This document shows positions 1-23,034 of a stretch of 23,125 bases of DNA, piece after piece. The notes beneath the pieces were generated by a model. It made no database searches and was not told the origin of the DNA. It saw only the letters and a list, made by a program, of their open reading frames with translations. Source of the stretch: Gemmatimonas sp. (lineage in GTDB: Bacteria; Gemmatimonadota; Gemmatimonadetes; Gemmatimonadales; Gemmatimonadaceae); NCBI GenBank assembly GCA_031414535.1, contig JANNVQ010000035.1:1-23125 (forward strand). Reading direction: 5' to 3'. Numbering within the stretch: position 1 is the stretch's first letter; each line of letters starts with the position of its first letter. A program made the position numbers and the translations under genes.

Positions 1-1046
<1,046 letters not shown>

Positions 1047-1082: not shown

Positions 1083-1613
1083 TTACTTCTTGAGCTTATC
1101 GAAAAACACCTTGCGCGCCTTCGACACTTTGGGCGCAACGACAACGGCGCAATACGGATTCGAAGGATTCCGCGCTAAGTAGTTGTCATGGTAGTTCTCG
1201 GCGGGCCAGAACTTTCCAAGCGTCTCAAGTTCCGTCACGATAGGATTGTCCCAATGCGCCTGCGCCGCAGCAAGCTTCTCGCGCGCCACCCGCGCCTGCT
1301 CATCAGAATGGGTGTAGATGGCCGAACGGTACTGCGGGCCCACGTCGTTGCCCTGACGGTCCTTGGTGGTGGGATCGTGGATGGTGAAGAACACATCCAG
1401 CAACTCACCGTAGGAAATCACGCTCGGATCAAAGGTTAGCTGCACCACCTCGGCGTGCCCCGTCTGCTTGCCGCAGACCTGCTCGTAGGTGGGATTCTGC
1501 ACGTGACCACCCGTGTACCCGCTCTTCGCCTTCTCCACGCCACGCAGTTCGAGGTACACCGCCTCGAGGCACCAGAAGCATCCGCCCGCGAGAGTAGCCA
1601 TCTCTTGAGTCAC
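1083..1613 (-). CDS. msrA: Peptide-methionine (S)-S-oxide reductase
   Basis: GGCFWC active site, [25 protein letters not shown] and AENYHDNY motifs. GTG start overlaps the msrB stop (GTGA). Confidence 0.97.
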
Positions 1614-2068
1614 GCGGACTCCTGCGTGAGGTTTGGAAAAAGCGCGGCAAAGGGAGCGTAGCCCTCGGCGGTCAAGCGAGTGGCCGGGACGAAGCGCAGG
1701 GAAGCCGAGTTGATGCAGTAGCGCAGGCCCGTCGGGCTAGGGCCATCGGGGAAGAGGTGCCCCAAGTGCGAATCACCGTCGGCGCTGCGCACTTCCACAC
1801 GCCGCATTCCATAAGAACGGTCTTCGATCTCCGTCACCTGCTTCGGTACCAAGGGCTTGGTGAACGAAGGCCACCCCGTGCCCGAGTCGAACTTGTCGTT
1901 GGAGGCAAAGAGGGGCTCGCCCGAGACCACATCTACATAGATGCCAGGCTCGTGGTGATCCCAGAACTCATTGCGAAAGGGCGGCTCGGTGGCGCTGCAC
2001 TGGGTCACCTCGTACTGCATCGGGGTGAGCTTGGCGGCGAGATCTTGGTTGTCTGGCTTTTTCTTCAT
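1610..2068 (-). CDS. msrB: Peptide-methionine (R)-S-oxide reductase, zinc-free type (152 aa)
   Basis: [28 protein letters not shown] and RYCINSA motifs. Start set to ATG 2068 (MKKKPDN); the upstream ORF extension looks non-coding. Confidence 0.96.
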
Positions 2069-2359
2069 ACGGAGCAAGTTTTGGAGAGAAGTACAGCAGA
2101 CTAATCGGACGGCGGGTCGCTCGCGTTCCCGCGAGCGCGATCGAGGCGAGCGACGAGAACAGCTGTCTCGAGGACGCCAATCGGCTGAGTGGGAATCTTG
2201 AATGCAAGAAGAATTGTGACATGCGGAAGTTCCGACGCAGTCCGTTCTTCCAGAAACCGCAGCTTTTACACCGAACATATGCCGAACTTACCGTATCGCC
2301 GTATGAACAGCACTTGGTAACAGCTTCGTGAAACACTTACCGGGGCACTTTCGTTGTAA

Positions 2360-2397
2360 GCAAGTAGCCGCTTACTTGTGTGCAAGCGTTTACTTGC
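2360..2397. promoter_or_regulatory. Two imperfect palindromes, candidate TetR operators
   Basis: GCAAGT-agcc-GCTTAC (2360-2375) and GCAAGC-gttt-ACTTGC (2382-2397), consensus GCAAGY-N4-RCTTRC, starts 22 bp apart, immediately upstream of the TetR ATG at 2412. Confidence 0.65.
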
Positions 2398-2411: not shown

Positions 2412-4427
2412 ATGACCGAACCAACCAAACAACACCTCCTAGAAGCTGCACTTCGCGTGTACGGCGAAGGTGGTTTCCGCGGCGCGACCACGCGGCGCAT
2501 CGCCGAAGAGGCGGGCGTCAACGAAGTCACGCTCTTTCGGCTGTTCGGATCGAAGGCGGCACTGATCACGGCGGCGCTCGAAATGCGCCAGCTGCGTGCC
2601 CCGCGCGATCCGCTTCCCGATGTGCCTGAGAATCCCCAAGCCGAACTCACCAAGTGGGCACAGCAGGACCACGAGTTCATGCTCGCATCTGCAGGGATGA
2701 TCCGCTCCTCTTTGGCCGAGATGCATTCGCATCCCGATTGCGCCGACTCCACGGCGTCGCATCCTGAGAGTTCGTTTGCGGAACTGCACTTGTATGTCGA
2801 GCGCCTTGCCCATCATCGCTTCATCCCCTCGTCGGCTGATGCCAAGCCCGCGGCGGCGATGCTGATGGGTACTATCTTCGCCGACGCCATGGGGCGTGAT
2901 CTAATGCCTTCGATGTTTCCGCCGCGCGAGCAAGCGCCGGCGACGTATGTGCGACTCTTTCTGCGGGCCATCGGTGCCACGGTTATCGCAGCGCTCTTCG
3001 CAATTCTTCCGCTGGCTTTGCACGCGCAGGGCTCCACCCCGGCGTCTGTGTCCAACGCCTCACCGACATCCCTCTCGCTTGCCGATGCGCTGCGCATGGC
3101 CGAGCAGCGCGCGCTCGGCGTTCAAGCCGCGCAGGCCGGTGCGGATCGCGCACGGGGACAGCTCCGTCAGGCCAACAGCCAGCGCTTACCGCAGATCAAC
3201 GGCAGCGCCAGCTATCAGCGCGCCATCCAGAATCAGTTCCAGGCCATCTCGGAGGCATTTCCTGCCGACAGCGCCGACACCACCAGCAGCGGCGGCGGCG
3301 GCGACGGCCTCGCGAATTCACCGCTCGCGGCCATCTTTGCGGCGCCCAACACCTTCGTCTTCACGCTCAGCGCCACGCAGAACATCTGGACCGCTGGCCG
3401 GCTGTCGGCGCAGCGTGCTGGAGCGGAGGCTGGCCGTGATGCGGCCAACATCGCGCTCTCGTCGGCGAAGGCGCAGGCCCTGCTCGATGTCGCACAGGCC
3501 TACTATGACGCTGTTGCCGCCGAGCGATTTGCGGACATCACTGACTCCACGCTGGCGCTCACGGAACGCACCTTCGCGCAAGTGAAGCTCGCGCGAGAAG
3601 TGGGAACCGCGTCGGAGTTTGATTTGCTTCGCGCGCAGGTGACCCGAGACAACGCACGCCCTGCCTCCATCCAAGCGCGTGGCGCGCGCATGGCCGCGCA
3701 GTTGCGGCTGAAGCAGCTGCTGCGGCTTCCGCTCCAACAGCCGCTCACGCTGACCACGCCCATCCGCGATGAAGCGGCCGCGCTTGCGCCAGCGCTCTCA
3801 GGCGTGACGCTCGCCGACTCGCGTAGCATGGCGCCGGATACCAGCGTCAACGCACGCGCCACAGTGCGACAGGCCGAATCGCAGTTGCGTGCACAGGAGC
3901 AAGCACTCAACGCCGCGAAGCTGGCGCGTTTGCCATCCGTACAGCTGAGCTCCAACTACCAGCGCTTCGCGTATCCGCCCGATGGCACCTTCCTTCCGAG
4001 TGATTTGAATCTGTACTTCCCCAACTGGACGGTCTCCTTGGGCATGAGCTTCCCGGTGTTCAACGGCGGTCGCATTGCCGGTGAGCGCATCGTGGCAGAA
4101 GCCAATGTGGCCGAAGCGCGCGTGCAGCTTGAGTCCGCCCGCGACGGTGCTGGGCTCGACGCCATCCTGAGCATCAGCGCACTCGAACAAGCGCAGGCTG
4201 CTTACTCAGCAGCGGTGGGTACCGATACCCAGGCCGAACGCGCGTATCGCATTGCCGAAGTGCGCTTCGCCGAGGGACTCTCCACTGCCGTTGAGCTCAC
4301 GGAGTCGCGCGTCCAATTGGAGCAGGCTCGCCTACAGCGCGTCACGACCGCGCGTGATCTCGAAATCGCTCGCCTTCGTCTCGCGCTCTTAAAGGATCTC
4401 CCGCTGACTCTCGGAGGGAGCCGCTAA
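2412..4427 (+). CDS. TetR/AcrR-family regulator fused via an internal signal peptide to a TolC-family outer-membrane efflux protein (671 aa)
   Basis: N-terminal HTH (GFRGATTRRIAEEAGVNEVTLFRLFGSKAALI); hydrophobic segment ending ALHA|Q at aa ~180-206; then two OEP repeats (LSLADAL, RLPQING, VAQAYY, RFAEGLST). No in-frame stop between domains. Confidence 0.9.
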   Translation: MTEPTKQHLLEAALRVYGEGGFRGATTRRIAEEAGVNEVTLFRLFGSKAALITAALEMRQLRAPRDPLPDVPENPQAELTKWAQQDHEFMLASAGMIRSSLAEMHSHPDCADSTASHPESSFAELHLYVERLAHHRFIPSSADAKPAAAMLMGTIFADAMGRDLMPSMFPPREQAPATYVRLFLRAIGATVIAALFAILPLALHAQGSTPASVSNASPTSLSLADALRMAEQRALGVQAAQAGADRARGQLRQANSQRLPQINGSASYQRAIQNQFQAISEAFPADSADTTSSGGGGDGLANSPLAAIFAAPNTFVFTLSATQNIWTAGRLSAQRAGAEAGRDAANIALSSAKAQALLDVAQAYYDAVAAERFADITDSTLALTERTFAQVKLAREVGTASEFDLLRAQVTRDNARPASIQARGARMAAQLRLKQLLRLPLQQPLTLTTPIRDEAAALAPALSGVTLADSRSMAPDTSVNARATVRQAESQLRAQEQALNAAKLARLPSVQLSSNYQRFAYPPDGTFLPSDLNLYFPNWTVSLGMSFPVFNGGRIAGERIVAEANVAEARVQLESARDGAGLDAILSISALEQAQAAYSAAVGTDTQAERAYRIAEVRFAEGLSTAVELTESRVQLEQARLQRVTTARDLEIARLRLALLKDLPLTLGGSR

Positions 4428-5599
4428 TGCAGTTCACCCAGAATCCCCAGACACCCGCCTCGCGGGGGATGGTTCCGATGTCGTCCCGTTCGCTTCGCGC
4501 CGCCGGCTTGGCCGCAGCCGCGCTTGTCATTTCTATCAGCGCCTGCGGTGGCGATGCCGCTGAGGCGACGCCCTCCACCCCCGTGGCGGTGAACGTAGGG
4601 CCGGAAGGTGTGGCTGTCGCCGCGCAGACCACGCTGTCCATTGGCCCGATGCTCTCGGGCTCACTCGTGGCCGAGCGTACCGCGCAGATTCGCGCCGAAG
4701 TACCGGGCGCGATCGTGCAGGTATTTTTTGATCCCGGCGCGGTGGTCAGCAAGGGCACCTCGCTCGCCAAGATTGATGACCGCGGCATTCAGGACGCCTA
4801 CCTCGGTGCGCGTTCGGGCTTTACGGCGGCACAATCCGCCGCGGACCTGAGCGCACGCGAGTTGGAGCGCGCCAATCGTCTGCACACAGCCGGTGCCATC
4901 TCCGAGTCCGTGCTCGAGAACGCGCGTCGCGCCGACCTCGGAGCACGCTCGATGCTCGATGACGCCCGCGCGCGCTTGGCGCAGGCCGAAAAGAGTCGCG
5001 ACGCTGCCAACGTGCTCGCCCCGTATAACGGTGTCGTCTCCGAGCGCTACGTAAATCCCGGCGACATCGTGAATCCCGGCACCCCGATGTTCGCGATTGT
5101 CGATCCGAGCACGATGCGCTTGGAAGCCGCAGTGCCCGCGAGCGAATTGTCTATGGTGCGAGTTGGTGCTCCAGTGCGCTTTACGGTCACGGGCTATCCG
5201 GGCCGCACGTTTGAAGGTCGCATCTCCAGCGTGAACCCGCAGGCCGATCCACAGACGCGTCAGGTGCGACTGTTTGTACGCATTCCCAACACCGGCCAGC
5301 GCTTGGTGGCAGGATTGTTTGCCGAAGGCCGCATTGCCAGCGAAACGCGCGACGCGCTCACCATCCCGGCCCTCGCCGTAGACGAGCGCGGCCTCCAGCC
5401 GCAGGTGGTGCGCCTGAAGAACGGCGCGACGGAGCGCGTGGCCGTCGTCCTTGGCGTGCGCGATGGCGCCACGGGCCAGGTGGAAATCATGAGTGGCATC
5501 GCTGCTGGCGACACCGTTCTCGTCGGCGCGGCACTCGGTATCACCGTTGGCACGCGAGTGAAGGTCAGCACGCCGTCAGACACTTCGACCCAGCGCTGA
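4427..5599 (+). CDS. RND efflux periplasmic adaptor (membrane fusion protein), probable lipoprotein
   Basis: IRAEVPGAI and VLAPYNGVV lipoyl-like half motifs, helical hairpin, ISAC lipobox-like site. TAATG overlap with upstream stop and GGAGGGAG RBS; alternative start 4478. Confidence 0.95.
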   Translation: MQFTQNPQTPASRGMVPMSSRSLRAAGLAAAALVISISACGGDAAEATPSTPVAVNVGPEGVAVAAQTTLSIGPMLSGSLVAERTAQIRAEVPGAIVQVFFDPGAVVSKGTSLAKIDDRGIQDAYLGARSGFTAAQSAADLSARELERANRLHTAGAISESVLENARRADLGARSMLDDARARLAQAEKSRDAANVLAPYNGVVSERYVNPGDIVNPGTPMFAIVDPSTMRLEAAVPASELSMVRVGAPVRFTVTGYPGRTFEGRISSVNPQADPQTRQVRLFVRIPNTGQRLVAGLFAEGRIASETRDALTIPALAVDERGLQPQVVRLKNGATERVAVVLGVRDGATGQVEIMSGIAAGDTVLVGAALGITVGTRVKVSTPSDTSTQR

Positions 5600-5611: not shown

Positions 5612-8600
5612 ATGTTCATCTCAGACTTTGCGATTAAGCGGCCGCTTGTCACCATCGTATCGATGTTGGCCCTGGTGGTGTTTGGCCTCTTCTCGCTCTG
5701 GCAGCTGGAAACGGACGAGTTCCCGGACGTTCAGCAGCCCATCATCAACGTCGCGATTCCGTTCCCCGGCGCCTCGCCGGACGTCGTGGAGCGCGAAGTA
5801 CTCGACCGTGTGGAAGAAGCCGTCTCGGGCATCTCAGGCGTGGACCGCATCTCGGGCGTTGCGCAGGACGGCTTTGCCAACGTGACGGTCTTCTTCGCCT
5901 TTGAAAAGGACCTGCAGCAGGCGTCGCAGGACATTCGCGACAAGATCAGCGCCATCCGCTCCGAGCTCCCGGTAGAAATGAAGGAGCCGGTGCTCACGCG
6001 CTTTGACCCGGCCGATCAGCCAATCATCGAGATGTCGCTCAATTCGAGCACGCTCGACGCGCCGGCGCTCACGCGCATCGCAGACCCCGCCATCACGCGT
6101 GTGCTGCGCGGACTCGGTGGCGTGGCCGAGGCCAATGTGGTGGGCGGCGTGGAGCGCGAGCTCACGGTTGAGATTCGTCCCGAAGCGATGGAAGCCGCCG
6201 GCATCACGGTGGCACAACTCGTGGGGGCGCTGCAGTCGCAGAACATTGCGGCTCCCGTGGGCCGCATCACCGGCGCACTCGATGAGCGCTCCATTCGCTT
6301 GAAGGGCAAGCTCGAGACGCCGGAAGACTTTCTGCAACTCGTGGTGGCCGAGAAGGGTGGCCGCTCAATCCGCCTCGGCGAAGTCGCCACGGCGCGCGAT
6401 GGCACTGCCGAGCCGCGCACCGCCGCGATGTTCAATGGCCGTGATGCCATCGGCATTCAGGTGAAGAAGTCCAAGGGCTATTCCACCACAGCCGTTTCCG
6501 AGCGCGTGGTGAATGCGATGGACGAGCTGCGCGCAGGACTGCCGGCGGGCACGACGCTCGACATCGTGCGCAATGCGGGCGACCGCGTGGACGCTTCGGT
6601 GTCCAACGTACAGAGCACGCTCATTGAAGGCGCGCTGCTGACGGTGCTCGTGGTGTTTCTGTTCCTCAACTCTTGGCGCTCCACGGTCATCACCGGGCTC
6701 GCGCTGCCCATCTCGGTGCTCGCGAGCTTTGTTGCCGTATGGGCCTTCGGCTTCACGCTCAACACGATGTCACTCCTGGGTCTCTCCCTCGCCATCGGCA
6801 TCCTGATTGACGATGCTATTGTGGTGCGAGAGAACATCGTGCGACACGTGGAAATGGGGAAGGACCACTTCCGTGCGGCGCACGAGGGGACCGACGAAAT
6901 CGGTCTCGCGGTGGCTGCAACGACCTTCTCGATCGTGGCGGTGTTCGTTCCAATCGGATTTATGGCCGGTCTCTCAGGCCAATGGTTCAAGCCGTTCGCG
7001 TTGACCATAGCTTGCGCCGTGCTCGTATCGCTCTTCGTGTCGTTCTCGCTCGACCCCATGCTCTCGGCGTACTGGCCGGATCCGGAGATCGAGAACCACG
7101 AGCATCGCAGTTGGATTTCGCGCCAGCTCGTGAAGTTCAATAACTGGTTCGACAAGTTGGCCGGTTCCTACACAAAGGTCATTGGCTGGGCGCTAGACCA
7201 CCGCCTCGTGATGGTTCTGCTGGCTGTGGGCTCGCTGGCTGGCGCGCTGTTCTTGCAGGCGACCATCGGTGGATTCGGCTTTGTGCCCGTGAGCGACAAC
7301 TCCGAACTCATCGTGCAGGTGGAAACACCGCCGGGCTCGAATCTCGAGTACACGCGCTTGAAGACCGAGGAAGCCGCGAAGGTGGCGCGGGCCCACGGCG
7401 AAGTGCGCTACACGTTTGCGACCATCGGCGCGGGCGGCGGTACGGATCCGTCGGAAGCGCTCGGTGCCGTTGACCTCGGATCTGTGTATGTGCGCATGAC
7501 GCCGAAGGCCGACCGAACAATCTCACAAGATCAGTTTGGCGCGATCCTTCGCGAGGAAGTGAAGTCCATTGGCGGCGCCAGCGTGGCGGTGTTCACCTCT
7601 GGATTCGGTGGGGCCATTAAGCAGGTGCAACTCGAGTTGCGCGGCGCCGACGGCCGTCAGCTACAGATCTTTGCCGATTCGTTGCTGCAAATCGTACGAG
7701 CGGTCCCTGGTGCGGTTGACGTGTCGCTGTCCACTAAGGGGCAGAAGCCCGAGCTCGAGATCACACTGGATCGCGCGCTGGCTGGCTCGCTTGGCGTGAG
7801 TGTTGGGCAGATTGCGCAGTCCTTGCGTCCGGCATTCGCGGGAATCGATGCCGGCGACTGGGTGGACCCTGCCGGTGAGAACCGGAAGGTACGGGTGCGG
7901 CTCGCGGCCGAGTCGCGGACGAAGGTGAGCGACATTGAGCGTTTGCCGATTTCTGTTGGTGGTCAGGGCGGTGCGCCGATGCGGATGATGCCGCTCGGTC
8001 AGCTTGCCACGGTCACGCAGGGCCTAGGGCCGGCCAAAATTTCGCACTTGGACCGCGACAACGTGGTCGTGGTGCAGAGTAACGTCTCTGGCCGCTCGCT
8101 CGGTGAAGTCACGGGCGACATCACGAAGGCGCTCAATCAGATGCAGGTGCCTGAGGGCATCCGCTGGAGCTTCGGCGGCGAGGCCAAGGACCAAGCGCAG
8201 GTGTTCGGCGACATTCTCGCGGCGCTGGGTATCGCATTGCTGCTGATGTACCTCATCCTGGTGATGCAGTTCGGCTCGTTCCTTGAGCCAATCGCCATTC
8301 TGATTTCCTTGCCGCTGTCACTCATCGGCGTGGTGCTGGCGCTCATCATTACCAACGACACGCTGAATATCATGTCGATGATCGGCGTGATTCTGTTGAT
8401 GGGCATCGTGGCCAAGAACGCGATCTTGCTCATTGACTTCGCCAAGTGGGGTCAGGAGCAGGGCATGTCGCGACGCGACGCCATCATTGAAGCCGGGCGC
8501 GTACGCCTCCGCCCGATTCTCATGACGACCTTCGCACTGATTGCCGGCATGATTCCGGTGGCGCTGGGCATTGGTGAAGGCGCGGACTTCCGTGCCCCGC

Positions 8601-8770
8601 TCGGCCGCGCCGTCATCGGCGGAACCATCACGTCAACGGTGCTGACGCTGCTCGTGATCCCGACGATTTACGAAATCATGGACGAGATGCGTAATAAGGT
8701 GGCGGGCTGGTTCAAGTTCCCGGTGCGTCCGAAGACCGAAGAGTACATGGTGCCGACGAAGCCGGTGTAA
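5612..8770 (+). CDS. RND efflux permease subunit (AcrB/AcrD/AcrF family, 1052 aa)
   Basis: MFISDFAIKRP start, GILIDDAIVVREN, AKNAILLIDF and RLRPILMTT proton-relay motifs; two TM clusters with large periplasmic loops. Confidence 0.97.
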   Translation: MFISDFAIKRPLVTIVSMLALVVFGLFSLWQLETDEFPDVQQPIINVAIPFPGASPDVVEREVLDRVEEAVSGISGVDRISGVAQDGFANVTVFFAFEKDLQQASQDIRDKISAIRSELPVEMKEPVLTRFDPADQPIIEMSLNSSTLDAPALTRIADPAITRVLRGLGGVAEANVVGGVERELTVEIRPEAMEAAGITVAQLVGALQSQNIAAPVGRITGALDERSIRLKGKLETPEDFLQLVVAEKGGRSIRLGEVATARDGTAEPRTAAMFNGRDAIGIQVKKSKGYSTTAVSERVVNAMDELRAGLPAGTTLDIVRNAGDRVDASVSNVQSTLIEGALLTVLVVFLFLNSWRSTVITGLALPISVLASFVAVWAFGFTLNTMSLLGLSLAIGILIDDAIVVRENIVRHVEMGKDHFRAAHEGTDEIGLAVAATTFSIVAVFVPIGFMAGLSGQWFKPFALTIACAVLVSLFVSFSLDPMLSAYWPDPEIENHEHRSWISRQLVKFNNWFDKLAGSYTKVIGWALDHRLVMVLLAVGSLAGALFLQATIGGFGFVPVSDNSELIVQVETPPGSNLEYTRLKTEEAAKVARAHGEVRYTFATIGAGGGTDPSEALGAVDLGSVYVRMTPKADRTISQDQFGAILREEVKSIGGASVAVFTSGFGGAIKQVQLELRGADGRQLQIFADSLLQIVRAVPGAVDVSLSTKGQKPELEITLDRALAGSLGVSVGQIAQSLRPAFAGIDAGDWVDPAGENRKVRVRLAAESRTKVSDIERLPISVGGQGGAPMRMMPLGQLATVTQGLGPAKISHLDRDNVVVVQSNVSGRSLGEVTGDITKALNQMQVPEGIRWSFGGEAKDQAQVFGDILAALGIALLLMYLILVMQFGSFLEPIAILISLPLSLIGVVLALIITNDTLNIMSMIGVILLMGIVAKNAILLIDFAKWGQEQGMSRRDAIIEAGRVRLRPILMTTFALIAGMIPVALGIGEGADFRAPLGRAVIGGTITSTVLTLLVIPTIYEIMDEMRNKVAGWFKFPVRPKTEEYMVPTKPV

Positions 8771-8935: not shown

Positions 8936-9445
8936 TTACGGACGCGGACCAAACCTACGTGGTGGACGATTCGCGGCGATCCAAGCACGCTGCGCATCTG
9001 TGAGCAGCGCGCGAAGTGCTTCGTGCAGTGCGATCACGTCAGGACGGAGCGCTTCGCCAATCGGCCGGCCGGTCGCGAGGATAGCGCGGATCTCTTCGCG
9101 CGTGGCACCGTCCTGACGAGCCGTGTGCGCGGCTTGGAAGATGGCGCGGAGCGAGTCGAGCGCGCCCTGATGCTCGGTGCGGAAGGCTACGCGTAGGGCC
9201 AACATCGCCGCGCGCTGTCCGTCGCTGAGCGCGATGGAATCCGGGAAGGACGGGCGAATCGTGCGGCCGTCGAACGGACGCGGGCCTGACTGCATGCCCA
9301 TCGTGCCTTCGAGTGCAGCGCCTTGTTCACCGAACATCACTAGCGCGTAATCCTCGGTGCTCGAGAGCGGACCGAGCGGTGACTCGCTGCAGGCCGCGAG
9401 CACTAGCGTCGCGGCGAGGGTGGGGAAAAGCAAACGACGTAACAT
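8936..9445 (-). CDS. Spy/CpxP-like periplasmic lipoprotein
   Basis: Lipobox LAAC; two LTxxQ-like motifs (LSDGQR, LTDAQR) bracketing a helical region; GGAGG RBS. Confidence 0.7.
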   Translation of the reverse strand: MLRRLLFPTLAATLVLAACSESPLGPLSSTEDYALVMFGEQGAALEGTMGMQSGPRPFDGRTIRPSFPDSIALSDGQRAAMLALRVAFRTEHQGALDSLRAIFQAAHTARQDGATREEIRAILATGRPIGEALRPDVIALHEALRALLTDAQRAWIAANRPPRRFGPRP

Positions 9446-9580: not shown

Positions 9581-10783
9581 CTAGGGCCGAAGATTCACCG
9601 ATGCCTCGCTCTCAGAGAGCATGGCATCCCAGAGCGGCAAGGTCACCCCCCAAAAGAAGCGCCGCTGCACGCCCGGCCTCTTATCCCGCGCTTGGTATCG
9701 GCCAAACCAATCCAGCCCCCGCGTTCGCATCAACGGGGGAGGCCGCACGCCTACGTCGGCAAAATCCCCGGCGAAGTAGGCCCGAACCCCGCTTCCCCTG
9801 TGCCGGACAACGGCGGGAAAGCGCGCCGAGAAGCCCGCATTCTCCAGACGGCGTTTGGCATCGCCGGTGACGTGGAAATCGTACCACGCAAGCACGTTGC
9901 CGCTGTCTGTGGGCGCGGTGCCGGTGACCCAATACCAGTAGGGCTGTCCGCTGCGTACGTGGCGCACCAAGGGGTCGTCCGGCTCCTCGACCTCAAGCGT
10001 AATTGGCCACTCGGTGGTGAACTCGCTTGCTTCTATCACGACGATGCGATCGTCCGTCTCGGAGAAGATCACGATGCCCGCGCCGCGAAAATTCCAAGGC
10101 TTCCAATACACACGCTCGTAGCGTTCACGCATCCAGGGCGGAATCTCGTCGGAGCTCTCAAGATTGGGATACCACCGTCCGAGCCAGCGCAGGTAGCGCG
10201 CCCCGAGCAAGTTTCCGAGCGCCTCACCGGCGGCGCTGCCAGACGTGGGCTCCTCGAGCGTGTTGAACTCTGCTACCACGGACCCACCGCGAGCCACGAA
10301 CCTCGTGAGAGCGTCCACTTCCTCCTTCGTCACGCCACCATAGATACGCTCGGAGTGCTCAAGTTCTCCGTGGGTACTGGTGTCGTTATCCATCAGATAG
10401 TCCCCCTCGTACACCCCGTATGCGTCGGCGATGTATACCAGATTGACAGAGCTCAGCGCACTATCGCTCAGGTCTGTACCGCGCGTGTTCGTGGGGTCGT
10501 AGCCGATGTAGTCGCGCGTCGGATCCCACAGGGCATCACCACGCGGTGATACCACGCGGCGGTGCGTGAGCCACCACGTCACCCGCTCGTGTTCACGCCA
10601 TTCCGGGCGGGGCAGGGTCTTGTCTACGATGAGCACGCGGTGATTCCGCAGCGGCGTCCACTGCCACCAGATGCTTGGCGCCACCAATAAAAATAGAAGC
10701 AGGAACAGTGAAATGAGGCGCTTGATGGGCCGACGCGCGCGCGGCGGTAGAGCCTGCTCAGTGGTAAATGTCTCCGTAATCAT
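9581..10783 (-). CDS. Uncharacterised N-terminally anchored extracytoplasmic protein (400 aa)
   Basis: Basic N-terminus plus one TM helix (LISLFLLLFLLVAPSIWW), then a globular alpha/beta region (VLIVDKT, LVYIADAYGVY, FVARGGSVVAEFN). ATG 10783 overlaps the decarboxylase stop (ATGA). Confidence 0.8.
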   Translation of the reverse strand: MITETFTTEQALPPRARRPIKRLISLFLLLFLLVAPSIWWQWTPLRNHRVLIVDKTLPRPEWREHERVTWWLTHRRVVSPRGDALWDPTRDYIGYDPTNTRGTDLSDSALSSVNLVYIADAYGVYEGDYLMDNDTSTHGELEHSERIYGGVTKEEVDALTRFVARGGSVVAEFNTLEEPTSGSAAGEALGNLLGARYLRWLGRWYPNLESSDEIPPWMRERYERVYWKPWNFRGAGIVIFSETDDRIVVIEASEFTTEWPITLEVEEPDDPLVRHVRSGQPYWYWVTGTAPTDSGNVLAWYDFHVTGDAKRRLENAGFSARFPAVVRHRGSGVRAYFAGDFADVGVRPPPLMRTRGLDWFGRYQARDKRPGVQRRFFWGVTLPLWDAMLSESEASVNLRP

Positions 10784-12243
10784 GTCTCTTCCGCCGCCGT
10801 GGAGCGCAACAAGGTCCAAGCCTCATCGAGCGTCTCCTGCGTCGTGCGCAGGTTCCCGATGGCGATGCGCAGTGTGTAGCGGCCGCCGAGCTTGGTGTGC
10901 GAGATAAAAATGCGGCCGCTCGCGTTCACGCGTTCCAAGATGGCGGCGTTGTGACGCTCGAGTTCCGCCTCATCGTCCATACCGCGCGGATGATGCCGGA
11001 AGCAAACCACGGACATTTCCACGGGCGCGAGCAGCTCCCATGCGCCGGCGCCGCGGAGGGTTCGTTCAAACACCGCCGCCAGCTCGCAGTGAAAACGCAG
11101 GCGCGACTGTAATCCCTCGAGGCCGAAGGCGCGGAGTACGAACCACAGCTTGAGCGCCCGGAAGCGGCGGCCGAGTTGGAAGGAGTAATCCGAGTACGAG
11201 AGCGCCACGTCCTGCTCGCGTGTGCGCAGATACTCCGGCGTGAGCGAGAACGCTCGACGCAGCACCTCTGGATGCCGCGTCCAGAGCACCGAACAATCCA
11301 TTGGCGTGAAGAGCCACTTGTGCGGATTCACCACCAGCGAGTCGGCGCGCTCAAGCGCGGCAAACAGCGCGCGCTTCTCGGGCAACAGCGCGAGTACGCC
11401 GCCGTAGGCCGCATCGGCGTGCAGCCAAAGTCCGTGGCGCTCACAGATGTCCGCAATCTGTGGCAATGGATCGATGGCGGTGCTCGACGTGGTCCCGAGT
11501 GTCGCCACCACGGCCAGCGGTCTCAATCCAGCGGCAATGTCCGTGGCAATCTGCAACTCTAGGAGATCCGCCCGCATACGAAACTGATCGTCACTGGCGA
11601 TGCGCACGCAGTTGCCGCGGCCGAGTCCGAGCGTGATGACGGCCTTGTCTACGGAAGAATGCGCTTGGTCCGAGCAGTAGATGCGCAGCACCGGCAAATC
11701 GGCGCGCCCCGCCATGCCGAGCTCGCGGATCTTAAGGGCGGGATCGCGTTCACGCGCCGCGGCGAGTGCTTGCAGCGTACTCGTGGACGCCGTGTCCGTG
11801 AGCATGCCGAACCAATCCGCAGGCAGGCCCATCGCGTCGCGCAGCCAACCAGTCGTGACCTGCTCCAACTCGGCGAGCGCCGGCGAGGTACGCCAGAGAA
11901 TGCCCACCTGATTGAGCGCGGCACTTACCAGCTCACCGAGGATGCCCGGCACTGACGCCGTGTTGGCGAAGTAGGCCAGGAAGCCCGGATGATTCCAATG
12001 CGTGACGCCGGGCATGATGACTCGGTCGAGGTCGGCGAGGATTGCATCGAGCGATTCCGCATGGACGGGAATCGCATTCGGCAGGGCCCGCCCTAGGTCC
12101 CCCGGTGCCACACGCGCGAGAACCGGGTAGCGTTCGGGAGACCCGAGGTAGGCTGTGATCCACTGCGCCAGATAATTGGCCTGTCGCTGGAACTCTTCGA
12201 GTGGCAGGTCGCCGTGGTCGGCGGGTCGGAAGGACGAATCCAT
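10780..12243 (-). CDS. Group II PLP-dependent decarboxylase (aromatic-L-amino-acid decarboxylase-like)
   Basis: PGVTHWNHPGFLAYF, SPALAELE, AHSSVDKA, GTTSSTAIDP, WLHADAAYGG, NPHKW (PLP lysine) and LGRRFRALKLW motifs. Confidence 0.95.
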   Translation of the reverse strand: MDSSFRPADHGDLPLEEFQRQANYLAQWITAYLGSPERYPVLARVAPGDLGRALPNAIPVHAESLDAILADLDRVIMPGVTHWNHPGFLAYFANTASVPGILGELVSAALNQVGILWRTSPALAELEQVTTGWLRDAMGLPADWFGMLTDTASTSTLQALAAARERDPALKIRELGMAGRADLPVLRIYCSDQAHSSVDKAVITLGLGRGNCVRIASDDQFRMRADLLELQIATDIAAGLRPLAVVATLGTTSSTAIDPLPQIADICERHGLWLHADAAYGGVLALLPEKRALFAALERADSLVVNPHKWLFTPMDCSVLWTRHPEVLRRAFSLTPEYLRTREQDVALSYSDYSFQLGRRFRALKLWFVLRAFGLEGLQSRLRFHCELAAVFERTLRGAGAWELLAPVEMSVVCFRHHPRGMDDEAELERHNAAILERVNASGRIFISHTKLGGRYTLRIAIGNLRTTQETLDEAWTLLRSTAAEET

Positions 12244-12250
12244 TCCTCAA

Positions 12251-13537
12251 ATGTACGACGACGACGACCGGCGGCTTGATGCCGCGGTTTCCCTAGGCAT
12301 CATCTCGGCGGAGCAGGCGGCGGGTATCCGCGCGCTCACGCCCGCGCGGCGCGCGCCCGCCGCTCCGCAGCCCGTGGACGCCTCGTCCATCGGCTACGTG
12401 CTCGGCGCCATCACCGTGCTCGTCGCGATGGGTTGGTTCCTCGCCGACCGCTGGGATTGGTTGGGCGCAGGAGGCGTGCTCGCGGTGCTCGGGCTCTACA
12501 TCGGCATGTTTCTTGTGGTGGCGCAGCGTCTGCGTCGCGAGGGGTATGAGATCGCCGGTGGCTTCGCGGTGCTGCTCGCGGTGGCGATGGTGCCCATCGC
12601 GGTGGTGGCGCTCAACGAGCTCACACATTGGATCTCGCCGGAGATTCGCGCGAGCTGCCAGAATTCGCGCGTCAATCTGCTGTTCGACTTCAATCTCTGG
12701 GATTGTCGCGGGTTGGAAATCGTCGTGGAGCTCAGTACGCTCGCCGCGGCACTCTTGGCCGTACGCGCCGTGAAATTCTCATTGCTGGTAGTCCCGATTG
12801 CAGCAATTGTCCTGCGCTTCGTGTTTCATGCCGCCGCTGCGGTGTTCGGTGGTGAACTCGGCGCCGTCAGCTCTGGCTGGGTCTGGGTCATCTGCGCGAG
12901 CCTGATGACCGCGGCTGCCTATCACAGCGATCGTACGCAGCCGGACGACCACGACTTTGCTCTTTGGCTGCACGTCATAGCCGTCATCTCGGCCGCCACG
13001 GCATCGGTGACGATCCTCAACGCCACCGACAGCTACCGGCACCTGTTGCCGGGAGGCGCGGTACTGGCCTTCATCTTCTCGCTTCGCATGCGACGCGCCC
13101 CCTGGACCCTACTCGGCATGGGTTGGTTTGTGGCGTATCTGGGCTGGCTCGCGGCCGACGTGTTCCGCAACACGCCAGTGTTTCCCATCGTGCTCGCGGC
13201 GCTCGGCCTCGCGGTGATCATCGCGACGGTATGGGTGCAGCGGAACACGGCCATGCTGATTGCACGATTCGGCGGCATCGCCAGCGATGGGCGGCCCAGC
13301 TTCCCGGGCGGTGTGGGGGTGATTCTACTCCCCATCGTGGCGGCGATGATTCAGCTGCCCTTGGCGGCGCAGCTCGATGCCGCGGAGCGTCGTGAAATGT
13401 TGGCCCGTATGAAGCGCGACGAGATTGTGGGCAGGCGGCAAGCAGCACTAGCGGCGGACTCGGTCCGGTTGGACTCGCTACACCAAGACGCCCAGCGGGA
13501 GTTGCCGAAGGAAACTCTCCCTTCCCGAGTGCCGTAG
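12251..13537 (+). CDS. Multi-pass membrane protein (DUF2157-like N-terminus)
   Basis: LDAAVSLGIISAEQAAGI N-terminal motif followed by about a dozen hydrophobic segments and a charged C-tail. Start set to ATG 12251 to avoid overlap with the divergent gene. Confidence 0.75.
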   Translation: MYDDDDRRLDAAVSLGIISAEQAAGIRALTPARRAPAAPQPVDASSIGYVLGAITVLVAMGWFLADRWDWLGAGGVLAVLGLYIGMFLVVAQRLRREGYEIAGGFAVLLAVAMVPIAVVALNELTHWISPEIRASCQNSRVNLLFDFNLWDCRGLEIVVELSTLAAALLAVRAVKFSLLVVPIAAIVLRFVFHAAAAVFGGELGAVSSGWVWVICASLMTAAAYHSDRTQPDDHDFALWLHVIAVISAATASVTILNATDSYRHLLPGGAVLAFIFSLRMRRAPWTLLGMGWFVAYLGWLAADVFRNTPVFPIVLAALGLAVIIATVWVQRNTAMLIARFGGIASDGRPSFPGGVGVILLPIVAAMIQLPLAAQLDAAERREMLARMKRDEIVGRRQAALAADSVRLDSLHQDAQRELPKETLPSRVP

Positions 13538-13597
13538 GCCCACGAGTACGGCACCCGGTGCAGATTGCCGGGTATCCCCGCTTGTGAGGATTTTCTG

Positions 13598-15946
13598 ATG
13601 CTGGTGATGGGCCTGATGTTGGCGCTGCAGGTGACGGTGAACGTGGATCGCGACTCCGGTCGTGCATCCGCCGGCGTTTCCATCAATGCACCGAGCCGGC
13701 AACGCATTGCAGTCACCGACGAACTTCGGCGCACGGCGTTTCGCGACGCCAATGCGCGCGATCTCATTCTCAAGGCTCGCGCCGCTCGTCTCGAGCAGGA
13801 TTCGTCGCTGCAGTCATACGACGTGAAGAGTTACCAGCGCGTCTCGGCGGGGATGTCGCTTCGCGAGACCGCACGCGAGCGCCTCGTTTTCCGCAGTGAA
13901 AACGCGGCGCACGTCCGCTGGCAGCGAGGTATCGGCGCCCGCGTGGAGATTCTCGGCGCGCGGCAGGTTGCGCCCATCATGCAGGGCATCGGCGAGGCCG
14001 AGCAGGAAATGCAGGAGGAGATGGAATCCGAGCTGAGCGACATGCTCGCCGTCCCGTACTACCCGGGTAAAGACGAGCTTTGGCTCTTTGAGATGGTGGG
14101 CTCGTCCGATGATGAAGACTCACCGATGCTCATTCATCCGGTGGCTGAGGGCTCGGAGGCGTACTTCACCTTCTCGAGTGGTGACTCGGTAGACATTGTG
14201 CTCCCGGATGGGAAGCGCATCAAGCTGCGCGAGGTGATTGCGACGCCACGCCAAGCGGTGTGGAATCTGGTGGTGGGTTCCTTCTGGTTTGAGACGGAAA
14301 ATGCCCATCTAGCGCGCGCCGTGATGCGATTCTCCGCACCGATGGACATTTGGGAGACGGTCGAAGCGGAAGACTCCACCGCTCGCGACGAGATGCCCGC
14401 GCCCGTGCGGGCCATGCTCTCGCCGATGAAGGTAGAGATTACAGCGGTCACGCTTGAGTATGGATTATTTGAGCAGCGTTATTGGTTGCCGCGCACGCAA
14501 GGCGCTGAGGGCTACGCGCGGGTGAGCTTCATGCGCGTGCCTTTCCGGATTGAGCAGCGCTACCGCTACGAGAGCGTAAACGCGACTTCGAATCTCGAAG
14601 CGATTCCGGCGCCGCCTGCGACTGCGCGCTGGAGCGATCTGCGCGACTCGCTGCGGGCTACTGGACTCGATTCCGCTGCGACGCGGGATACCATCGGCGC
14701 CATTTACGCACGGGCCGACACCGCGCGCCGCGCGGCACGTGCCGCGGCCTGCGCGACGAATGCGACCTACACCGTGTACGAGCGGCGCGAGAACGGCGCA
14801 TTGGTGATGGCAGTGGAGGTGCCCTGTGATGCGAAGGTCCTCGCCAACTCCTCCGAGCTTCCGCCGTCCATCTACGATCGGGGGGATGAACTCTTCGGCG
14901 CCGCCCAGCGCGAGGAGCTCATGCAGATGCTCGACTTCGGCCTTCAGCCCTCGTGGGCGCCGCGCGCGCCGACTCTGGAGTACGGTCTCCAGTTCACGCG
15001 CTTCAATCGCGTGGAAGGTTTGGCTTCGGGCCTCCGTCTGGGCTCGACCCTCGGTAAAGGCTACAGCGTCTCGCTCGACGCACGCGGCTCGCTGGCCGAC
15101 CTGCAACTCAACGGCGCGCTGTCGCTCGCGCGCTCAAACGGGCGCCGCGCGTATCGCGGGACCCTGTACCGTCGCTTGAACGTGAGTTCCGACTTCGGGG
15201 ATCCGCTCTCGTTTGGGGCATCGCTTCCGGTGTTCTTCTACGCCCGCGACGAAGGCTTTTACCATCGCAGCTGGGGCGCCGAGTTTGTGAATGAAGGCGT
15301 TCCGCGCACGGGCCTGGAGTGGCGCATGTTCGCCGAGCAACAATGGAACGCGAGGGTTGAAAACGACTGGTCGCTGTTTGGTGGGGCCAACGACAATCGC
15401 TACGTCGGCAATGTTGTGGCTGACACGGGCTGGTTCTATGGCGCGGGAGTTCGCTGGCGAGGCAGCCGCGGCTTGGACCCCCAGGGTTGGCGCTTGAGCG
15501 CGGACCTGCGGCTTGAGGGCGCGACGGGCGCGATGGACTACGGCCGCGCCTTCTTGGAGACAATCGTGAGCCGTGGGCTTGGACCCGTGGTAGCCTCGGT
15601 GACGGCGGCCGCGGGCACCAGCGAGGGTGAACTTCCGGCGCAGCGGCAGTTCTTCCTCGGCGGCCTCCAGAGCATCCGAGGGCAGAGCGCGGGCACCGGC
15701 GTGGGCGAGGCCTTCTGGATGACGCGCGTGGAATTCGGGACCTCGGCGGTCGCGGTCAAGCCAGTGATTTTTGGGGACTTCGGTTGGGCGGGCGCTCGTG
15801 ATGGCTGGAGCCAAACGGGCCGACCGATGAGCGGGGTGGGCGTTGGTGCTTCGTTTCTTGACGGTCTTATCCGCATAGACCTCGCGCGGGGCATTTACCC
15901 GCGTTGGCAGACGCGTTTAGACCTCTATCTCGAAGCGCGCTTCTAG
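13598..15946 (+). CDS. Outer-membrane protein with C-terminal beta-barrel (Omp85/ShlB-like)
   Basis: Amphipathic beta-strand pattern in the C-terminal half, FFLGGLQSIRG (YxLGG..VRG-like Omp85 motif), terminal YLEARF. GAGGA RBS before ATG 13598. Confidence 0.75.
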   Translation: MLVMGLMLALQVTVNVDRDSGRASAGVSINAPSRQRIAVTDELRRTAFRDANARDLILKARAARLEQDSSLQSYDVKSYQRVSAGMSLRETARERLVFRSENAAHVRWQRGIGARVEILGARQVAPIMQGIGEAEQEMQEEMESELSDMLAVPYYPGKDELWLFEMVGSSDDEDSPMLIHPVAEGSEAYFTFSSGDSVDIVLPDGKRIKLREVIATPRQAVWNLVVGSFWFETENAHLARAVMRFSAPMDIWETVEAEDSTARDEMPAPVRAMLSPMKVEITAVTLEYGLFEQRYWLPRTQGAEGYARVSFMRVPFRIEQRYRYESVNATSNLEAIPAPPATARWSDLRDSLRATGLDSAATRDTIGAIYARADTARRAARAAACATNATYTVYERRENGALVMAVEVPCDAKVLANSSELPPSIYDRGDELFGAAQREELMQMLDFGLQPSWAPRAPTLEYGLQFTRFNRVEGLASGLRLGSTLGKGYSVSLDARGSLADLQLNGALSLARSNGRRAYRGTLYRRLNVSSDFGDPLSFGASLPVFFYARDEGFYHRSWGAEFVNEGVPRTGLEWRMFAEQQWNARVENDWSLFGGANDNRYVGNVVADTGWFYGAGVRWRGSRGLDPQGWRLSADLRLEGATGAMDYGRAFLETIVSRGLGPVVASVTAAAGTSEGELPAQRQFFLGGLQSIRGQSAGTGVGEAFWMTRVEFGTSAVAVKPVIFGDFGWAGARDGWSQTGRPMSGVGVGASFLDGLIRIDLARGIYPRWQTRLDLYLEARF

Positions 15947-20060: not shown

Positions 20061-20888
20061 ATGCTCTCTTATGTCACGCGGCGGACGGTGCCGTTTGCGG
20101 CTGCCGCGCTCGCGCTGTCTCTCTTGGCCTGCGTTCCCCAACCGGTGGATTGGTCCGAGGACATTGAACGGGTTGAAGGCGTGCTGGCTGATTCTATGCG
20201 TCTCGTGTTCAAGGCGGACGCGCCAGGTGGTGTAGCCTTTGCACCCCTGTGGCGGCCGCCCACTTGGCCCAGTGAGCCGAGTCAATGCCGCGCGTCCCTG
20301 CGGGCCGACCGGGCCCTCGGTGATGAAGCCTACGCCAGTTGGTTCACCGTGCGCGAGGATTCCTCCGTGGTATTGCGCGTGGCGCGCTCTGACGACGGCG
20401 GCCTGACGTGGAACGCCGCGGTGACGGCAGACTCTGTGGACGTGGGCCGTGCAGGCTGCGCGCGTCCGGTGCCCTACATCGCGGCAGACTCGCTCAACGG
20501 CTACGTGCACATCGTCTATTACCTCGATGCCCGCGAAGGCGCAGGGCTATTCTTCACGCACACCATGGAACGCGGCGCGCTCTTTCACGAACCGGTGCCC
20601 ATCGTATACGGCGACCGCCCCTCCGCCGCGGCCGTGGCCTCGCGCGGTGACACGGTGGCCGTGGTGTTTGAGGACCCCAATTCGAAGCTTCCGCGCCTCG
20701 GCATCGCGCTGTCTCGCCTGCAGGGACACATTTTTGAGCAACGCGCTTCCGCTTCCGACGACACCGGTGAGGCGCGTACACCACGCATCGCGCTCCGGGG
20801 TACGCAGCTGGTGATCGGATGGACATCGACCTCCAGAGGTGGTACGATGCCACGCACCGCCACTCGCTCCGGTAAGATTTCTTGGTAA
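20061..20888 (+). CDS. Lipoprotein with BNR/Asp-box repeat (sialidase-like propeller)
   Basis: Lipobox LLAC; Asp-box SDDGGLTW; beta-rich repeats. Confidence 0.75.
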   Translation: MLSYVTRRTVPFAAAALALSLLACVPQPVDWSEDIERVEGVLADSMRLVFKADAPGGVAFAPLWRPPTWPSEPSQCRASLRADRALGDEAYASWFTVREDSSVVLRVARSDDGGLTWNAAVTADSVDVGRAGCARPVPYIAADSLNGYVHIVYYLDAREGAGLFFTHTMERGALFHEPVPIVYGDRPSAAAVASRGDTVAVVFEDPNSKLPRLGIALSRLQGHIFEQRASASDDTGEARTPRIALRGTQLVIGWTSTSRGGTMPRTATRSGKISW

Positions 20889-22689: not shown

Positions 22690-23034
22690 ATGGCTGCCAA
22701 GAAGAAGGCTGCAAAGAAGGCTGCAAAGAAGGCGCCGGCCAAGAAGGCCGCAAAGAAGGCTCCGGCCAAGAAGGCCGCCAAGCGCAAGCCGAACGCTGCG
22801 TTCATGAAGCCGGTGACGCCGAATGAGAAGCTCGCCCTTGTGGTTGGCGCTGCGCCGCTGCCGCGCACCGAGCTCACCAAGAAGCTTTGGGTGTACATCA
22901 AGAAGAACAACCTGCAGGACAAGAAGAACCGTCGCATGATCAACGCCGACGCGGCGCTCAAGGCGGTCTTCAACGGCAAGGCTCAGGTCTCGATGTTCGA
23001 CATGACCAAGCTCGTCTCGAAGAACCTCAAGTAA
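22690..23034 (+). CDS. SWIB/MDM2-domain protein with histone-H1-like Lys/Ala N-terminal repeats (114 aa)
   Basis: AKKAA/AKKAP repeats, then PNAAFMKP...LPRTELTKKLWVYIKKNNLQD...INAD...VSMFDMTKLVSKNL. GAGGAG RBS before ATG 22690. Confidence 0.92.
   Translation: MAAKKKAAKKAAKKAPAKKAAKKAPAKKAAKRKPNAAFMKPVTPNEKLALVVGAAPLPRTELTKKLWVYIKKNNLQDKKNRRMINADAALKAVFNGKAQVSMFDMTKLVSKNLK

Follow-up and report, generated by a model that had tools for sequence, protein, structure and literature searches.

A TetR repressor and a TolC-family channel joined in one reading frame by a predicted internal signal peptide in Gemmatimonadaceae

In a freshwater genus of the Gemmatimonadaceae, the first gene of a tetR-tolC/mfp/rnd operon encodes a TetR-family repressor and a TolC-family outer-membrane factor as one protein, with a signal-peptide-like segment at the junction. 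The fusion is real and conserved, not an assembly error, and by domain tests the protein belongs to both the TetR and the OEP families. The reading towards which we lean, if only slightly, is that the 671-aa precursor would be threaded through Sec and cleaved behind A205 by signal peptidase I, with TolC exported and a TetR piece of about 205 aa repressing its own operon. In addition, codons 162-181 carry a patch, new here, resembling a nested translation start in most of the genus, eroded in the subclade of the genome studied and absent from a second fused lineage. Coordinates (Table 1) are those of the window, i.e., the whole stretch of 23,125 nucleotides that was analysed.

Table 1. Features of the fused locus and its operon, in window coordinates
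Feature	Position	Strand	Remarks
ECF-promoter-like motif GAAAC-N17-CGTT	2329..2355	+	directly upstream of operators
Palindromic operator 1, likely TetR site	2360..2375		GCAAGY-N4-RCTTRC type
Palindromic operator 2	2382..2397		same palindrome type, upstream of tetR
Fused tetR-tolC ORF	2412..4427	+	671 aa, one open frame; TetR_N + signal-peptide-like junction + TolC
TetR-family repressor part	2412..2996	+	aa 1-195; HTH aa 9-54; from Pfam, AlphaFold2 model and unfused 195-aa sisters
Candidate nested initiation region	2895..2954	+	spans codons 162-181; A/T-rich at synonymous sites, weak folding; ATG 2904 (M165), ATG 2913 (M168), GTG 2949 (V180); weak in own subclade
Internal signal-peptide-like segment	2946..3026	+	n-region aa 179-188 (TetR last helix), h-region aa 189-200, c-region L-x-A to A205
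Predicted mature TolC-family outer-membrane factor	3027..4424	+	starts at Q206; Pfam OEP x2; Foldseek TolC/OprM/CusC
RND periplasmic adaptor (mfp)	4427..5599	+	start overlaps TolC stop (TAATG)
RND permease (AcrB/AcrD/AcrF family)	5612..8770	+	follows adaptor

The first-pass annotation, made from the letters of the window, had described one uninterrupted TetR-TolC frame, and this stands: the ORF is open throughout, with Pfam TetR_N (PF00440) matched at 49.5 bits (cut-off 24) and OEP (PF02321) matched in two stretches of the C-terminal part at 165 bits. In Foldseek the TetR half matches TetR structures (target TM 0.66-0.75) and the TolC half matches TolC, OprM and CusC (E 1e-17 to 1e-13), the latter half scoring under the NCBIfam equivalog cut-offs, which leaves it with no named subfamily. 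The AlphaFold2 model, built from a 50-sequence alignment, has nine TetR helices over aa 6-187 (pLDDT mostly 70-90; block pLDDT 88 and 75), the last at aa 175-187, followed by a helix at aa 189-197 and a linker of low confidence, and then by the TolC fold. The junction peptide quoted in that annotation and its coordinates are exact (V180 is GTG 2949, A205 lies at 3024-3026 and Q206 at 3027-3029), although its placement of the TetR end near aa 188 has to be moved, the nearest unfused relatives, P0146 and P0148, being 195 aa long. The risk of an assembly error between 2940 and 3030, which it had raised, is answered by a contig from a second sample (run X2, same study), which covers 2817-4459 without a single differing letter and with just one gap, of 3 nt, in frame and well away from the junction, and the fusion found across the genus agrees; the full contig from run X1 is possibly the source of the window and hence not independent support. 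A GGC run at about 3289, within a Gly repeat, is 3 nt shorter in both metagenome contigs than in the window, giving 670 instead of 671 aa.

A match to the fused locus was found in 52 of 55 genomes of the genus (the three without a match are 71-82% complete), and all 51 loci that span the junction, from 50 genomes, are fused in a single open frame, two further contigs ending before the junction. Full-length identity within the genus is 60-79%. The suspicion that close relatives might all carry separate tetR and tolC genes thus does not hold for the genus, where the junction is conserved in 50 of 50 junction-spanning genomes; it is in other genera that the genes are split, namely at 34 of 34 orthologous loci (genus g60 apart), often with an ATGA/GTGA overlap, and at 16 of 16 further loci with tetR and tolC, in a sample chosen by score or long frame and not randomly. 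The further loci come from seventeen genomes with a long open frame or a read-through match at tetR, one of which has no tolC in the locus. A protein search gave 283 long relatives, with both TetR and TolC domains in all 120 listed; the named ones carry the label Gemmatimonadaceae, and annotation pipelines call these proteins only 'TolC family protein', which masks the regulator. Two genus loci (L049 in G016 and L090 in G211) are fused at the junction and frameshifted later in TolC, through assembly error or decay, and one genome (G026) has two different fused copies (L029 and L050), possibly by bin contamination.

P0146 and P0148 branch next to the genus as its sister (support 81, with 97 for the genus clade), and their tail aligns to aa 189-195 of the fused protein. 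The fusion thus deleted the tetR stop together with the tolC start and n-region, and the last helix and tail of TetR became the front of the signal; residues 189-195 of the 'signal' are, judged by this alignment, remodelled TetR tail and not TolC sequence. The single-sequence fold of P0146 is of low confidence (pLDDT 50). How short the step can be is illustrated by G052, in which tetR and tolC are in frame and parted by TAG-ATG alone, one change from fusion; there, as in other loci of family f3, the gene upstream of the related tolC (L036 in G052) encodes a different TetR subfamily.

On the tree the fusion arose independently at least twice in the family, and again in further lineages. In genus g60, of which 30 genomes were searched and 27 loci analysed, 14 loci are fused and 13 split, and the fused ones have a longer junction in which the basic TetR tail would serve as n-region. 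The tree of 46 loci needs three changes, and a single clade of all fused rows is rejected (p-AU 3.9e-6); within g60 the test does not tell one origin from two (p-AU 0.35). The first-pass annotation had proposed a search for TetR_N + OEP architectures elsewhere, and beyond g60 this yielded three more TetR-signal-TolC fusions (P0268, P0404 and P0338) among the 150 listed representatives of 50% clusters, placed apart from both groups, P0338 using a different TetR subfamily; these are single sequences, with P0404 frameshifted later, and errors are possible. In all three a basic TetR tail is joined to the h-region with no Met between. In the ESM Atlas, clusters with TetR_N and OEP come mostly from Gemmatimonadota (98 members), from Elusimicrobiota (170) and from Verrucomicrobiota (54), and a search of that atlas with aa 1-260 gave no usable match. 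Such recurrence may only reflect that basic TetR tails are ready-made n-regions.

The idea that the last TetR helix doubles as the basic n-region of a signal peptide agrees with the model, where helix 175-187 overlaps aa 179-188 and carries R181 and R185; the best 12-mer hydropathy is 2.68, as against 2.2-2.4 in split orthologs. This higher hydrophobicity was rejected as a sign of SRP targeting, since a single clade is concerned and the trait is already there in the nearest split genome. Across 50 aligned homologs P200, A205 and Q206 never change, among surrounding residues that vary, and this alignment alone is the independent placement of the site, our scripts having taken it as the first A/G-Q; so placed, 110 of 118 proteins have L, A or V at position -3. 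Neither a lipobox nor a twin-arginine (Tat) motif was found at any of 65 loci (0/65 each). All this is in keeping with the SPase I-type site proposed in the first-pass annotation, and we infer from the sequence that signal peptidase I would cut between A205 and Q206. The signal nevertheless sits 180-205 aa inside the ORF, and TolC has no N-terminal signal on a gene of its own unless a nested start is used. In the model, helix 175-187 is placed with good confidence as part of the TetR fold, and the h-region follows without a linker. A tethered TetR dimer would therefore lie directly against the membrane, and folding of TetR and recognition of the signal may be in competition.

The TetR half itself looks functional, as its HTH evolves at an unchanged rate and a candidate operator is nearly universal. 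The ratio of HTH to TolC distances is 0.60 in the genus, 0.63 in the g60 fusions and 0.62-0.63 in split loci, the whole-domain TetR/TolC ratio being 1.35, 1.18 and 1.45-1.52, respectively. Of the 121 loci, fused and split together, 120 have at least one copy of GCAAGY-N4-RCTTRC ahead of tetR, and of the four sites in the whole genome two are upstream of the fused ORF; the other two exact matches to the pattern (G000 C29:126288 and C51:1993) mark possible regulon members. The strict GAAAC-CGTT motif (spacing N16-18), which we liken to an ECF-sigma promoter, occurs at 35 of 54 genus-type loci and at 6/14, 6/13 and 6/40 in the other groups, and it is not enriched genome-wide (7 against 11 in the control). 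In distant split relatives the operator lies over a -35 element that we take to be sigma-70-like, and a TANNNT about 7 nt before the tetR ATG suggests a leaderless tetR mRNA there. A Cys near aa 110 was discarded as a mark of the fusion, not being fusion-specific. Binding of a palindrome by the N-terminal HTH is what the available text of PMC8277102 describes for TetR.

With no TetR stop, and with the nearest stops in the two alternative frames, counted onward from the last helix, scattered from 1 to 235 and from 27 to 907 codons away, hence no conserved frameshift exit, the repressor would be obtainable only from the long product, in keeping with the first-pass annotation. In the reading that we favour, translation from ATG 2412 would give the precursor, whose internal signal would engage Sec; signal peptidase I would cut after A205 and free mature TolC, from Q206 onward, for the outer membrane; and TetR(1-205), keeping a signal remnant of 17 aa, would repress the operon through the two upstream palindromes, either tethered by this remnant or after an RseP-type cut. 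The genome has two LepB homologs and one RseP homolog.

The same annotation had mentioned, as an alternative, that TolC could be made separately from the GTG at 2949, and had held the lack of an obvious RBS against it. This objection loses its force here: at the true tetR start only about 1 of 50 loci shows an SD-like 4-mer, SD sequences are scarce in the genome at large (19% at starts vs 9% background; the assembly yielded no 16S rRNA 3' end), and since starts here rarely have an SD, a missing RBS excludes no internal start. Codons 162-181 are, moreover, the top internal window of synonymous A/T, second to the 5' end alone (permutation p 0.0002 over the gene and 0.006 over the TetR half), and the weakest-folded internal stretch compared with synonymous shuffles (42 loci). 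The A/T excess over the TetR body is present at 47 of 52 genus loci, and at 28 of 31 near-independent genus loci chosen to be near-saturated at four-fold sites. The corresponding counts are 6 of 14 for fused g60 loci, 8 of 19 for close split ones and 12 of 26 for far split ones. R181 is written as CGA in 39 of 50 loci, where 8-14% would be expected, and is the sole CGA-majority column among 37 conserved Arg columns. Where GTG180 is missing, another start codon is found within -10 to +8 codons in 4 of 6 loci, compared with 4 of 46 loci where it is present (in a window picked after seeing the data).

Not every candidate sign survives. GTG at V180, present in 46 of 52 loci, is not significant as start evidence on its own, being near the 76% expected from codon context, and M168 was rejected as a genus-specific start (44, against 7 of 48 split), since M165, M168 and V180 are all seen already in the unfused sister TetRs and so predate the fusion. 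At real starts the A/T excess lies mainly over the first 8 codons, so M168 or M165 fit at least as well as V180. A start-site PWM scores the candidate internal starts at -1 to -6 and real starts at a median of +5; built from 355 heuristic starts, it is noisy and penalises sites with coding sequence upstream, and was given little weight. Alternatively, a pause or some other cis-element may underlie the patch.

In the genome of the window the patch is weak (A/T 0.27 vs 0.19; opening energy 14-15). Its subclade of eight loci has GTG180 in 4 of 8, as opposed to 42 of 44 elsewhere. To open the better candidate start there takes 14.3 kcal/mol, against 8.5 elsewhere and about 9 at real starts; the contrast was spotted post hoc, and the eight members are related. 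The closed genome G348 is without the GTG. The g60 fusions show no A/T or folding signal at the junction, 6 of 14 have no ATG, GTG or TTG in the stretch from the last helix to the h-region, and the one start common to the fusions is a Met, which 33 of 48 split TetRs have as well. A nested start near M165/M168 or V180 would thus probably add extra TolC in most of the genus, and with it eroded or absent in the window's subclade and the second fused lineage, the precursor would probably be the main source of TolC there. It follows that the strict 1:1 stoichiometry of repressor and channel expected in the first-pass annotation is doubtful, given this signature in most of the genus.

These data could be taken further, to an arrangement of two nested genes, in which TolC would come mainly from ATG 2904/2913 or GTG 2949 as an ordinary preprotein with a signal of 26-41 aa, while the full-length product would serve only to supply TetR, its TolC tail poorly exported or degraded. 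We regard this as possible, though distinctly not the probable case. The A/T peak and weak folding in most of the genus, the CGA majority at R181, the replacement of lost GTG180 by nearby start codons and the dispensability of an SD all speak for it, and there is a precedent: in E. coli, arcB (giving ArcB-C) and speA have an internal GUG or AUG at a domain boundary, with local synonymous constraint and isoforms differing in location (bioRxiv 10.1101/520783), the arcB start being a GUG. The same preprint cautions that conserved patches may be unrelated cis-elements; further, the GTG180 rate is near its context expectation, the three candidate codons are older than the fusion, their PWM scores fall below those of real starts, the signature is weak in this genome and subclade and absent from the g60 fusions, and TetR would still carry the attached signal and TolC. 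In arcB and speA, besides, the short form loses a targeting signal, whereas here it would gain an N-terminal one and be of an unrelated family. N-terminomics alone cannot reveal such a start, because signal cleavage erases it, a point made in the available text of PMC13515050. Be that as it may, once TolC has an entry inside tetR the stop cannot return, so conservation of the open frame is partly forced, a sort of evolutionary trap, which makes it no proof of precursor processing and does not imply an adaptive feedback.

Less probable by far is that nothing is exported from the long product at all, the precursor staying cytoplasmic or uncleaved in the inner membrane and being trimmed by proteases to the TetR core, with the pump using the nested start or another TolC. 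A folded domain of 190 aa directly ahead of a short h-region, with no linker in the model, would fit this, the genome has ten further OEP loci besides the fused tolC, from which the pump could borrow a channel, and the TolC half is frameshifted in G016 and G211 (possible assembly errors); against it, the TolC half is conserved as much as the TetR half or more, and the cleavage motif is invariant, also in lineages with no sign of a nested start. That a programmed frameshift or stop at the junction frees TetR, or that the fusion is an artefact of assembly, is hardly credible, as nothing speaks for it other than the CGA at R181, which could slow decoding, and the out-of-frame stops are scattered, the second-sample contig is identical and 50 of 50 genomes are fused.

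If export and cleavage of the precursor do take place, it is tempting to go one step further and suppose that the repressor would be active only once exported-and-cut with its own channel, that the activity of Sec, signal peptidase or RseP would set its level, that envelope stress would de-repress the pump and that the genus would record a switch from nested start to obligate processing. We think this extension unlikely.

Local repression of RND operons by TetR/AcrR proteins is the closest known arrangement, and the split Gemmatimonadota orthologs have the same four components, the same order and the same palindromic operator upstream of tetR. Those operons, however, have separate tetR and tolC genes, whereas here there is neither a tetR stop nor a separate tolC start, and the last helix and tail of TetR front the TolC signal. 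In giving, as predicted, two proteins from one bacterial gene the fusion would resemble the cytochrome b-c1 precursor FbcH of Bradyrhizobium japonicum, which reportedly joins two inner-membrane subunits of one complex through an internal signal sequence that is cleaved; the partners here are instead a soluble DNA-binding regulator and an outer-membrane barrel. RsiV, RsiP and IutY, the last said to be a sigma/anti-sigma hybrid, are cases of regulated intramembrane proteolysis and likewise have a cytoplasmic regulatory domain ahead of a membrane segment. For RsiV and RsiP, the available text of PMC10202637 describes a site-1 cut by signal peptidase behind the cytoplasmic regulatory domain, followed by a site-2 cut by RasP/RseP. 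Their cleavage is ligand-gated and the outer sensor part is discarded, while here the outer part is the channel, and by analogy cleavage would more likely be constitutive. A literature search, in which subscription journals were thinly covered and supplements lay outside the scope, found no description of a TetR-TolC fusion, nor is there one in the text of PMC8277102 that was examined.

The locus thus offers a natural, conserved case, with several origins, of a predicted classical signal peptide about 190 residues inside a protein and behind a folded DNA-binding domain. It raises two testable questions, i.e., how deep in a chain Sec and signal peptidase can use a signal, and whether export of a controlled protein can set the dose of its transcription factor, for which the genus provides natural variants that have or lack the nested-start signature, plus unfused sisters.

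As for the neighbourhood, between 2050 and 9000 a sigma-70 promoter scan found none and terminators were no more frequent than by chance. The adaptor has its synonymous A/T peak at codons 16-35 (region 4427-4480), just past two in-frame Mets (codons 15 and 18); the true adaptor start may thus lie downstream of 4427. Divergent from tetR, with the intergenic region in common, lies msrB-msrA (1083-2068, minus strand), where 50 of 53 genus loci have msrB, 47 have msrA and no locus of other genera has either (flank length varies by locus), which raises a possible link to envelope or oxidative stress. An IS110-family transposase (109-1044, plus strand) occurs only in this genome among the compared loci. 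Five ORFs (8936-9445, 9581-10819, 12176-13537, 13565-15946 and 20061-20888) have no NCBIfam match, several of them with apparent signal or membrane segments, and at 22690-23034 (plus strand) a small protein combines a Lys/Ala-rich, histone-like N-terminus with a match to the C-terminal SWI-domain part of topoisomerase fusion models.
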